From Escherichia coli (GTDB lineage Bacteria; Pseudomonadota; Gammaproteobacteria; Enterobacterales; Enterobacteriaceae), in the NCBI RefSeq assembly GCF_017348835.2, contig NZ_CP071375.1: a stretch of DNA of 64,000 bases, one strand, 5' to 3'. Made by a program: the position numbers. Numbering within the stretch: position 1 is the stretch's first letter; the number at the start of each line of letters is the position of its first letter. Below are positions 17,758 through 23,700 of the stretch, piece after piece.

Positions 17758-20700
17758 AAATAGTTAATAGCTCTTACTTCTTCGCCTCTGCAACCACTTT
17801 GCTACCCACGCCGCGGTTATTGTATTCCCACATGCGGTTGTAGTTAGTGTCATTCAGATTGCGCTGTATTTCGTCGCTATCGTCAACGCTGCCGGTGTTA
17901 CCCGCAAACGGACGATTAGAGATCACCGCATCGCCCCACGGTTTAGCCGTGTTAAAACCTTCGTTGATGGCGCTATCACGGATCACCACCTGACCGTTGG
18001 TATTGGCATCAACATCCAGCGAGCGGCCCAGTTGTGCCACGCCATCACCGGAAGCATTGAAACGGCTGTTTACAGCGAGGAAACCGTAGTAAATGTTGGA
18101 CAGCGTTGCCGGTGCAAACACATACGCTTCTTGCTGAGTACGTGAGTTCACCACGCGGAATTCGGTGTTATCGAACACCACTGCGCCGCGACCAGAAACG
18201 ATATCCACATCCCCTTCAATGTAGCTGTTGGTCACCAGCGTACGCGGCTGACGGTTGGTTTCCAGACGGTTCTGCACACCGCTGTTGGTGACAAAGAAGG
18301 TGTTCTGACGACCGAGAATGTTAACGTTGTTAATCTGTACCTGGTCACCGTCAGTACGCAGTGCCACAGCTGGATGGTTACCCGCATCTACGCTATCGCC
18401 CAGCGTGTTTTCGATGGTCAGATTTTGCAGTTGCAGGCCATTGTTTTGTGACCAGAAGACCGCAGAACAGAGAACACCGATACTGTCGCTGCGTTTGCTC
18501 TGGCAGCTATCGTACATATACCACGCTGGTTTACCTGGCATATATTTGCCGCGCGGGTTGACGTCGTGACGCCAGTCGGCAGGGCTCATGCCCCCATCAA
18601 GGGAAAGCCCAATCTTCACATCAATCGGTTTTTCACCTGTACCGTACAGAGTAATTCCACCTGGAGCAGCAGGGACATACACCGTTCCCTGATACTCACC
18701 AGGCATCACGGCAATATACTGGCGCTTGTTGGTGCGCTTGATAATTGCCGCATCTACCGCCGCCTGAATCGTGGTATGCGTTACACCTTGAGTACCCGCC
18801 GGGCCGACAACAAAGTCAGGTTGCGCAGGCAGGGTTATCGGGGACGGATTCCACGCTGCAGCACCTGGTGTCAGGGATGCAAAATAGTGTTGAGCATCGA
18901 AATTCTGCGCTTCTTTTGCCGACAGAATCGGGCGAGAAGAGGTACCAGGCGCAGTTTGATCAGAAGGACGTTGATCGGGTGGTGTTGAGCTACAGGCGGT
19001 CAGCGTCACGCCAAAAGCCAATGCCAGCGCCAGACGGGAAACTGAAAATGTGTTCACAGGTTGCTCCGGGCTATGAAATAGAAAAATGAATCCGTTGAAG
19101 CCTGCTTTTTATACTAAGTTGGCATTATAAAAAAGCATTGCTTATCAATTTGTTGCAACGAACAGGTCACTATCAGTCAAAATAAAATCATTATTTGATT
19201 TCAATTTTGTCCCACTCCCTGCCTCTGTCATCACGATACTGTGATGCCATGGTGTCCGACTTATGCCCGAGAAGATGTTGAGCAAACTTATCGCTTATCT
19301 GCTTCTCATAGAGTCTTGCAGACAAACTGCGCAACTCGTGAAAGGTCGGCGGATCCCCTTCGAAGGAAAGACCTGATGCTTTTCGTGCGCGCATAAAATA
19401 CCTTGATACTGTGCCGGATGAAAGCGGTTCACGATGAGTAGATGCAATTATGGTTTCTCCGCCAAGAATCTCTTTGCATTTATCAAGTGTTTCCTTCATT
19501 GATATCCCGAGAGCATCAACATGCAATGTTGTAGGGATGGCAATTTTTACGCCTGTTTTGCTTTGCTCGACATAAAGATATCCATCTACGATATCAGACC
19601 ACTTCATTTCGCATAAATCACCAACTCGCTGCCCGGTAACAACAGCCAGCTCCATTGCAAGTCTTAGCCAACATGGTGATGATTCTGCTGCTTGATAAAT
19701 TTTCAGGTATTCGTCAGCCGTAAGTCTTGATCTCCTTACCTCTGATTTTGCTGCGCGAGTGGCAGCGACCGGGTTTGTTGTTATATGGCCTTCAGCTATT
19801 GCCTCTCGGAATGCATCGCTCAGTGTTGATCTGATTAACTTGGCTGACGCCGCCTTGCCCTCGTCTATGTATCCACTGAGCATTGCCGCAATTTCTTTTG
19901 TGGTGATGTCTTCAAGTGGAGCATCAGGCAGCCCCCTCCTTATTGCTTTAATTTTGCTCATGTAATTTATGAGAGTCTTCTGCTTGATTCCTCTGCTGGC
20001 GAGGATTTTTTCGTAGCGATCAAGCCATGAATGTAACGTAACAGAATTATCACTGTTGATTCTCGCTGTCAGAGGCTTGTGTTTGTGTCCTGAAAATAAC
20101 TCAATGTTGGCCTGTATTGCTTCAGTGATTGCTATCCTCCTGTCTCGGCCTAATCCAAACTCTTTACCCGTCCTTGGGTCCCTGTAGCAGTAATATCCAT
20201 TGTTTCTTATATAAAGATTAGGGGGTAAATCCCGGCGCTCATGACTTCGCCTTCTTCCCATTTCTGATCCTCTTCAAAAGGCTACCTGTTACTGGTCGAT
20301 TTAAGTCAACCTTTACCGCTGATTCGTGGAACAGATACTCTCTTCCATCCTTAACCGGAGGAGGGAATATCCTGCATTCGCGCACCCATCGACGAACTGT
20401 TTCAAGGCTTCTTGGGCGTCGCTGGCGTGCATTCCACTCCTGAAGTGTCAAGTACATCGCAAAGTCTCCGCAATTACACGCAAGAAAAGCCGCATTGATG
20501 CGGCGATGGTAGGTCTGGATATCATTGAGCCATGAACAGGCCTCATCGAGTGTGAGGCTGTGGTTAGTCCTTTCGTAACTCGCTGATTCTCCTGTAAGTC
20601 TCTGGTGCTTTGTTTCCGTGTATCTTCATTTCAGACTTCAACAGAGCAACGAGGGAATCCCATTCGTTGAGGATGCCTTTGAATGCCGGAACGCGCTTTG

Positions 20701-23700
20701 CAACCTTGTCGAATGAATCTCTGATTTCTGGAATCTTCTCAACAAGTGCAACGCATCGTCGGAAGTCTGCTGCGTCATGGGGAGCGCCGAAGTGATGACC
20801 ATAGATATTCTTTTTCAGGCCACATGCGATTGAGGCAAGAGTTGCGCTACTGATGCCAACATCGCCAGTCGATTGCCATTTCAAAACCTTCATAGACAAA
20901 TCTGACATTTCTTGTCTCCAATAAAAAAAACCTCCATCAGGCGGCTTGGTGTTCTTTCAGTTCTTCAATTCGAATATTGGTTACGTCTGCATGTGCTATC
21001 TGCGCCCATATCATCCAGTGGTCATAGCAGTCATTGATGTGAACCGCCCCGGAAATCCTGGAGACTAAACTCCCTGAGAAAGAGGTAAACAGGATGACTA
21101 AAAATACTCGTTTTTCCCCCGAAGTCCGTCAGCGGGCGATTCGTATGGTTCTGGAAAGTCAGGATGAATATGACTCACAATGGGCGACAATTTGTTCCAT
21201 TGCTCCAAAGATTGGCTGTACGCCGGAGACTCTGCGTGTCTGGGTTCGCCAGCATGAGCGGGATACCGGGGGCGGTGATGGCGGGCTCACCACCGCTGAA
21301 CGTCAGCGTCTGAAAGAGCTGGAACGTGAAAATCGTGAACTGCGCCGCAGTAACGATATCCTTCGCCAGGCTTCCGCTTATTTTGCGAAGGCGGAGTTCG
21401 ACCGCCTCTGGAAAAAATGATGCCACTGCTGGATAAGCTGCGTGAGCAGTACGGGGTCGGACCGGTATGCAGCGAACTGCATATTGCCCCGTCAACGTAT
21501 TACCATTGTCAGCAACAGCGACATCATCCGGATAAACGCAGTGCCCGTGCGCAGCACGATGACTGGCTGAAGAAAGAGATACAGCGCGTATACGATGAAA
21601 ATCACCAGGTATACGGTGTGCGTAAAGTCTGGCGTCAGTTGTTACGGGAAGGTATCAGAGTGGCCAGATGCACTGTGGCACGTCTCATGGCAGTTATGGG
21701 ACTTGCCGGTGTTCTCCGGGGTAAAAAGGTCCGCACTACCGTCAGCCGGAAAGCCGTTGCCGCATGCGACCGCGTAAACCGTCAGTTCGTGGCAGAACGT
21801 CCAGACCAGTTGTGGGTGGCTGATTTTACCTGGGTAAGCACATGGCAGGGCTTCGTTTATGTGGCGTTCATCATTGATGTGTTCGCCGGATACATCGTGG
21901 GATGGCAGGTCTCATCATCCATGGAAACAACATTCGTGCTGGATGCACTGGAGCAGGCGTTGTGGGCCCGTCGGCCGTCCGGCACAATCCATCACAGTGA
22001 TAAAGGTTCTCAGTATGTATCGCTGGCCTACACGCAGCGGCTTAAGGAAGCCGGATTACTGGCATCAACAGGGAGTACTGGCGACTCGTATGACAACGCG
22101 ATGGCGGAGAGCATCAATGGTCTTTACAAAGCGGAGGTAATACACCGTAAGAGCTGGAAAAACCGGACAGAAGTGGAACTGGCCACACTCACGTGGGTGG
22201 ACTGGTATAACAATCGACGATTGCTGGAAAGGCTGGGCCATACTCCCCCGGCAGAAGCAGAAAAAGCTTATTATGCTTCCATCGGAAACGATGATCTGGC
22301 AGCCTGAGTTCACAGATAAAACACTCTCCAGGAAACCCGGGGCGGTTCATCTGCTCAGTGGGATGCCGGACATTACCGGACAACTGCTGCGGCACCTCAA
22401 CTCCGATTTGATGAACGCAATATTCACAAGCAATGCGTGGTGTGCAACCAGCACAAAAGCGGAAATCTCGTTCCGTATCGCGTCGAACTGATTAGCCGCA
22501 TCGGGCAGGAAGCAGTAGAGGAAATCGAATCAAACCATAACCGCTATCGCTGGACTGTCGAAGAGTGCAGGGCCATCAAGGCGGAGTATCAACAGAAACT
22601 TAAAAAACTGCGAAACAGCAGAAGTGAGGTTGCATGAATATCTACGAAAGAATTGATGGCAGCAAATACCGAAATATTTGGGTAGTTGGCGATCTGCACG
22701 GATGCTACACGAACCTGATGAAAAAACTGGAGACGATAGGATTCGACACCAAAAAAGACCTGCTTATCTCGGTGGGCGATTTGGTTGATCTCGGTACAGA
22801 GAACGTAGAATGCCTGGAATTAATCACATTCCCCTGGTTCATAGCTGTACGTGGAAACCATGAGCAAATGATGATTGATGGCTTATCAGAGCGTGGAAAC
22901 GTCAATCACTGGCTGCTTAATGGCGGTGGCTGGTTCTTTAATCTCGATTACGACAAAGAAATTCTGGCTAAAGCTCTTGCCCATAAAGCAGATGAACTTC
23001 CGTTAATCATCGAACTGGTGAGTAAAGGAAAAAAATATGTCATCTGCCACGCCGATTATCCTTGTGATAAATACGAGTTTGGAAAGCCAGTTGATCATCA
23101 GCAGGTAATCTGGAACCGCGAACGAATCAGCAACTCACAAGACGGGATCGTGAAAGAAATCAAAGGCGCGGACACGTTCATCTTTGGTCATACGCCAGCA
23201 GTGAAACCACTCAAATTTGCCAACCAGATGTATATCGATACTGGCGCAGTGTTCTGCGGAAACCTCACATTGATTCAGGTACAGGGAGAAGGCGCATGAG
23301 ACTCGAAAGCGTAGCTAAATTTCATTCGCCAAAAAGCCCGATGATGAGCGACTCACTACTGGCCACAGTTTATTGGTTTTCGTAACTGAGTCATTTTATT
23401 ATTTTATTGCAACTTTTAATCTTTTATAGTGCGAAATAAATGGAGCTGGCATTCATTTCGCACTTTATGTTTTTGTTGGACTTATGTTATTTTGATTGAA
23501 TTCAATTCAGTTAAAAAAAGAAGGTGATTGCTCCATTTATAAATGAATAGTCATCCCCTGTCTTGAATTCTGATGTTACTTTATTAAATGCTAGTGTGAA
23601 GGCTACAGGTGCATACCCAATTGTTGCGCCAACTTGATATTCATCAACAGTTTTGTTTAGCGATACTGTTGTTTGTTTCGTCTGTATTGTTTTTCCTTCG

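Follow-up and report, generated by a model that had tools for sequence, protein, structure and literature searches.

We analysed a 64,000-nucleotide stretch of Escherichia coli DNA (RefSeq assembly GCF_017348835.2, contig NZ_CP071375.1), hereafter the window, in which a short segment carrying an open reading frame (ORF) of 114 codons, ORF114, lies between the excisionase gene xis of a lambda-type integration module and what remains of ORF55. ORF114 is encoded on the same (minus) strand as xis and int, and in the RefSeq annotation of the locus int adjoins ybhC, which places the module at the lambda attachment site of E. coli. The gene is already known and annotated: it is ORF114 of phage 434, with a homolog in phage HK022, and is not a novel insertion. 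The segment as a whole is very probably the ORF114 cassette of 434/HK022-type lambdoid phages, here sitting within a defective prophage at the lambda attachment site.

Identity with ORF114 of phage 434

Window positions 20200-21040 share 99.9% DNA identity with two phage 434 records: M60848.1, entitled 'Phage 434 integrase (int), excisionase (xis), ORF114, and ORF55 genes', and the complete genome OL657226.1. We take the first of these to be the deposit that accompanied Baker et al. (1991, New Biol 3:297). The gene order ORF55, ORF114, t'I, xis, int is common to the window and the 434 records, and the features map one to one. The hairpin downstream of ORF114 is annotated as t'-I in M60848.1 and as a terminator in OL657226.1, and a ribosome binding site is annotated in the phage 434 genome at the place equivalent to the Shine-Dalgarno sequence in the window. 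The 434 records list the reading frame as ORF114 or as a hypothetical protein (AAA67902.1 in M60848.1 and CPT_434_33 in OL657226.1). The window protein differs from 434 ORF114 at one of 114 residues and from the homologous HK022 protein, HK022_32 (AUM59808.1, labelled 'N15 early protein homolog'), at four. Phages 434 and HK022 thus have the same gene, neighbours, terminator and ribosome binding site as the window, whereas in the window ORF55 is cut by an insertion sequence (IS) and the remainder of the pL operon is deleted. The initial annotation, made from the window alone, had described the protein as unassigned; this holds for its function but not for its identity, since the gene had already been annotated in M60848.1.

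The gene is also widespread. It occurs in phages mEp043, mEp213, Gally and Huey and in many Shiga toxin (Stx) 1 and Stx2 phages, and it is present in 1033 of 5426 complete E. coli genomes. The exact protein sequence of the window, named 'hypothetical protein' in RefSeq (WP_001281774.1), is found on at least 1000 contigs. The features of the locus are collected in Table 1.

Table 1. Features at the ORF114 locus and in the adjoining prophage remnant, numbered from the first nucleotide of the window
Feature	Position	Strand	Basis
int, lambda-type integrase, 356 aa	19191..20261	-	ORF list; RefSeq annotation of the same locus
xis, excisionase, 72 aa, directly downstream of ORF114	20239..20457	-	Pfam Exc, E = 3.9e-41
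434-type terminator t'I, hairpin GCCGCATCAATGCGGC then TTTTCTTGCG	20479..20504	-	Terminator scan; -10.5 kcal/mol
Segment absent from lambda	20489..20924	.	Alignment and exact-match extension against NC_001416
ORF114 coding sequence, 114 aa, seven-helix PHROG 1229 family protein (predicted fold)	20564..20908	-	ORF list, PHROG, AlphaFold2
Shine-Dalgarno GGAGA, 6 nt before the ORF114 ATG	20915..20919	-	Read from sequence
Weakened copy of the lambda t'I hairpin, CCGCCTGATGGAGG + T8	20920..20947	-	One mismatch to lambda; -7.3 kcal/mol
ORF55 3' remnant, homolog of lambda lambdap35, cut by the IS element	20937..21039	-	Coordinates transferred from M60848.1
IS3-family element, IS629/IS1203-like, 1310 bp, 25-nt inverted repeats	21040..22349	+	Inverted repeats, transposase ORFs
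LpxR lipid A deacylase	23511..24470	-
Q antiterminator	24860..25633
Tail fibre gene	27235..28509
NleH/OspG-like kinase	28877..29767
Cif	29991..30839
NleG	31707..32255

The extra segment in comparison with lambda

That a segment interrupts lambda-like sequence, as the initial annotation had proposed, was confirmed by alignment with the lambda reference (NC_001416). Identity with lambda extends from xis to window position 20488 (lambda 29109) and restarts near 20925 within an A-run (lambda 29106-29111), which leaves the window with a net gain of 440 bp over lambda between ORF55 and xis and an ambiguity of 4 bp in the shared A-run. The size of about 430 bp first given was close to this figure, while the range 20458-20940 given with it was slightly too wide on both sides. 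ORF114 is the single ORF of the extra segment, on the int/xis strand, and the segment ends near a hairpin and T-run, both as first described. ORF114 starts 28 bp after the stop codon of ORF55, and a spacer of 59 bp separates its end from the downstream t'I hairpin. The ORF55 stop codon itself, TGA at 20937-20939, falls within the loop of the CCGCCTGATGGAGG hairpin. A 32-codon ORF on the minus strand at 20448-20546, which overlaps the xis start, the pI region and the t'I hairpin, had no match in Pfam or PHROG and is most likely spurious.

The two hairpins that flank ORF114 suggest how the lambda and 434 arrangements are related. Lambda has one hairpin at this point, CCGCCTGATGGCGG followed by TTTTTTCTTGCG (lambda 29112-29125, -13.0 kcal/mol). 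In the window, the copy upstream of ORF114 has one base changed relative to lambda, which breaks a stem pair and reduces the predicted stability to -7.3 kcal/mol. The downstream hairpin (-10.5 kcal/mol) is unlike that of lambda in sequence, while its T-run and the bases that follow (TTTTCTTGCGTGTAATTGC) are common to both. The lambda-type hairpin is thus kept upstream of ORF114, and a different hairpin fronts the shared T-run. Judged from the sequences, lambda resembles a junction between the left half of the first hairpin region and the right half of the second.

A deletion in lambda seems at least as likely as an insertion in 434, because HK97 keeps a remnant of ORF114 and because many chimeric proteins listed for E. 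coli in the databases contain half of it. In HK97 (AF069529.1, 1486-1614), the 434-type t'I hairpin, the 59-bp spacer and approximately the last 16 codons of ORF114 are retained as non-coding sequence below gp37; this remnant is a mosaic breakpoint within ORF114. In the E. coli database chimeras (P0015, P0017, P0031, P0034, P0047, P0049, P0050 and P0206), half of ORF114, and in one case the whole, is fused to Ea22, ERF, Kil or PF04447 (dATP/dGTP pyrophosphohydrolase). Recombination junctions in the exo-xis region thus appear to fall often within ORF114. The gene does not correspond to a known lambda ea-region gene: across the whole lambda genome, tblastn gave a best E of 0.65, and the family profile found no match in the six-frame translation at E up to 10.

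Conservation and predicted structure

ORF114 is a real gene and not a chance reading frame, as indicated by the ratio of nonsynonymous to synonymous substitutions (dN/dS), its match to PHROG 1229, the size of its family and a confident structure prediction. Among E. coli ORF114 alleles, dN/dS is 0.09-0.20, a sign of purifying selection. Residues 1-114 align with positions 1-113 of the 116 in the PHROG 1229 profile (E = 2.2e-51), a family annotated as of unknown function. An exhaustive HMMER search (E up to 0.001) found 1877 related clusters at 50% identity, and tblastn located the family in 277 phage records, among them those of P22-like Salmonella phages and of phages of Cronobacter, Yersinia, Mannheimia, Providencia, Vibrio, Gordonia and Arthrobacter. 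The family spans phages of Proteobacteria and Actinobacteria and is confined to phages. One relative, P0070, has two tandem copies of the ORF114 domain.

In an alignment of 69 members, numbered on the window protein, seven residues are invariant (G18, S20, P43, D45, D48, R51 and C52), all of which are present in the window protein, and five more are nearly so (W11, S21, L55, P60 and W83). AlphaFold2, run on the same alignment, predicted seven helices with a mean predicted local distance difference test (pLDDT) score of 96.2 and a predicted template modelling (pTM) score of 0.89. The model describes ORF114 as a compact, all-alpha, seven-helix protein.

Decay of the prophage

In the window, ORF114 is separated from the rest of the pL operon by an IS3-family element whose 25-nt inverted repeats are 88% complementary. 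The element has no target-site duplication (ATG on the left and TCT on the right), and its flanks are the truncated ORF55 on the left and the 3' end of ninG on the right. Together these features imply that pL, N, the immunity region and the replication genes were lost in an IS-associated deletion. An identical left junction occurs in strain PE164, where RefSeq describes the ORF55 remnant as 'incomplete, missing N-terminus', but kil lies on the right side of the element there, which points to a further deletion in the strain of the window. In the O26 strain RM10386, the prophage site is the same but lacks the IS element. Since pL was lost through the IS629-like element and the deletion, the copy of ORF114 in the window is intact but probably silent.

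The prophage remnant at 22437-34300, between ybhC and ybhB/bioA, bears type III effector genes, namely those for an NleH/OspG-like kinase, Cif and NleG, together with genes for an LpxR lipid A deacylase, a Q antiterminator and a tail fibre (Table 1). Phage 434 itself has NleC-like genes, NleH-like fragments and an IS1414 transposase fragment beside attP (OL657226.1, 343-2502), an effector cargo region of the same kind as that in the prophage of the window.

Expression and genomic context

A crude consensus scan, which a weak or non-sigma-70 promoter could escape, found no sigma-70-like promoter on either strand of 20200-21100. According to the 434 annotation, ORF114 lies upstream of the CII-dependent pI promoter. 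Because no promoter of its own was found and because it lies upstream of pI, N-antiterminated pL transcripts would be the only source of the ORF114 protein in an intact phage, where it would be made alongside Xis and Int on infection or induction and not in the lysogen. By analogy with the biology of lambda and 434, we infer pL-dependent early expression in the intact phage. Within the pL-driven exo-xis region, ORF114 comes last and is a variable gene. Base composition shows no shift across the locus: the insert has a GC content of 47.7%, against 45.3% for int, 48.9% for xis and 45.6% for ORF55.

The exo-xis region is transcribed earliest from pL, is non-essential and can shift lysogenization and induction, as described by the Wegrzyn and Donaldson groups (PMC8614690, PMC3824215). 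In these two papers, ORF114 is not among the proteins modelled or tested, and 434 and HK022 are not mentioned. The lambda exo-xis genes orf55 and ea8.5 occupy the same slot and follow the same logic of expression as suggested here for ORF114, being early, pL-driven and non-essential. In contrast, ORF114 has no sequence relative in lambda, and its predicted all-alpha fold differs from the alpha/beta model of Orf55.

Homologs of ORF114 lie just upstream of the xis/int genes of at least five different types of integration module. These include modules with lambda Xis, with TorI (beside an ORF114 allele), with a helix-turn-helix (HTH)-type xis at sbcB in O157:H7, with a P22-type xis in Cronobacter phage ENT47670 and with a P22-like int in Salmonella phage SPN9CC, as well as that of a Mannheimia phage. 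Other homologs have exonucleases, methyltransferases and Abc2 or Lar-like genes as neighbours in early regions, among them those of the Sashavirus phages, which have no integrase nearby. The neighbourhoods of six distant relatives consist only of generic early or accessory phage genes. Some homologs lie on the opposite strand within tail or structural gene clusters, such as that at 1872-2330 in Vibrio phage K75 and that at 4001-4357 of another locus. Unlike the window copy, these look like autonomous morons.

Alternative explanations

The initial annotation had regarded the segment as a small moron beside int/xis, a location it associated with anti-defence or exclusion genes. In its classic form, this explanation would make ORF114 an autonomous unit, expressed from the repressed prophage and providing superinfection exclusion or defence for the lysogen. 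The moron concept reportedly arose from the comparison of the HK97 and HK022 genomes. As in lambdoid morons, the extra DNA here lies between neighbours that are adjacent in a related phage and has its own terminator, and some family members in tail modules, on the opposite strand, have an autonomous appearance. ORF114 differs from such elements in that no promoter was detected, its composition equals that of its flanks, and it is embedded in the early pL operon, 28 bp past the stop codon of ORF55. Furthermore, it matched nothing in PADLOC, and the family is also present in Sashavirus phages without a nearby integrase. We therefore did not retain the moron interpretation, which appears improbable for the window copy. 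An anti-defence or exclusion role as such is neither supported nor contradicted by these results, which gave no PADLOC hit, no match of the fold to a solved protein and no publication on the gene. An accessory factor in site-specific recombination, modulating excision or integration with Xis and Int, is equally doubtful. Its recurrent place directly upstream of different xis/int modules and its expected co-transcription with both genes from pL in the intact phage would fit this role, but lambda and HK97 integrate and excise without ORF114, and members in Sashavirus, Vibrio and Gordonia phages lie far from any integrase. The position may merely mark the boundary of two mosaic modules. In addition, ORF114 has no similarity to lambda Xis or P22 Xis: it had no PF07825 or HTH_17 match in Pfam, and BLASTP against P22 Xis gave E = 20. 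The SPN9CC homolog had been considered as a P22-type Xis, being of the same length and in the same place beside int, and was rejected for lack of similarity (E = 4.2).

An HTH-like DNA-binding regulator of phage or host genes is likewise an unlikely description of the protein. When the 69 family members were scanned against Pfam at E up to 5, no HTH family and no recurrent, coherent family of any other kind emerged. Nucleic-acid binding or DNA mimicry, considered on the basis of a conserved charge, was rejected: the net charge varies, with a family median of -2 and a value of +5 in the window copy, which speaks against a role as a general nucleic-acid binder and equally against one as a DNA mimic. 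Lastly, ORF114 could be a non-functional or chance reading frame in the junk DNA of a decayed prophage, given that the prophage is defective here and the promoter of ORF114 has been lost. Purifying selection, a very large conserved family, the confident structure prediction, and an intact ORF whose exact sequence recurs on so many contigs leave almost no room for this explanation, which is already refuted at the family level.

Searches for a function

Having set these alternatives aside, we return to ORF114 as a conserved early gene of the exo-xis region and to what its product may do. Our tentative guess, which we hold with rather low confidence, is that it would be dispensable, act early and bind a conserved component of the host, serving either in counter-defence or in the modulation of host physiology or of the lysis-lysogeny decision. 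The latter is suggested because such modulation has been reported for other exo-xis proteins. A bolder version is possible but somewhat less likely still: ORF114 would found a large phage family that has no Pfam model and a fold unseen among solved structures, whose invariant cluster of S, D, D, R and C residues may be a binding site for a defence component or a conserved molecule of the host, and which would constitute a new class of counter-defence or host-takeover proteins. If true, this class would be common to temperate and virulent phages of Proteobacteria and Actinobacteria.

None of the results bears directly on function. ORF114 matched no family in Pfam or NCBIfam and none in PADLOC at E up to 1. 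Sequence and profile searches of the PDB returned nothing, and comparison of the predicted fold with solved structures, including the anti-defence proteins in the PDB, gave no match. In BFVD the matches were to uncharacterised family members only, and every relative in the databases is named 'hypothetical' or 'prophage protein'. The seven invariant, mostly polar residues, conserved across phyla, could equally mean a catalytic or ligand-binding site instead of a surface for protein binding; ORF114 is not an enzyme of any known type. Domain fusions, considered as a functional clue, were also rejected, as the partners in the 41 longer relatives that were scanned are incoherent and mostly unrecognisable. 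Only one of the 41, P0188, exceeded the Pfam cut-off, with a ribosomal L7/L12 C-terminal domain (29 bits). P0187, which adjoins ART-PolyVal genes, has a sub-threshold nucleotidyltransferase-like N-terminus, and several other longer relatives have zinc-ribbon-like N-termini. The limited sensitivity of the promoter scan tempers the case for expression from pL alone.

The K-12 KplE1 genes near torI were considered as possible relatives, given that the ORF114 allele of SFE8 lies beside torI, but YfdT and YpdJ of K-12 are unrelated to it. A literature search on the ORF114 gene returned nothing relevant, and the literature on lambdoid anti-defence contained nothing on ORF114.

Significance

For the window itself, the finding is of little importance, as it concerns an annotated 434/HK022 gene stranded in a decayed prophage. 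The family is of somewhat wider interest. ORF114 is a common phage protein, carried by about one in five complete E. coli genomes, with approximately 1,900 related clusters across phyla and a predicted fold unlike solved structures. The exo-xis region has a known influence on lysogenization and on how Shiga-toxin prophages are induced, and a function for ORF114 would extend the current picture of this region.

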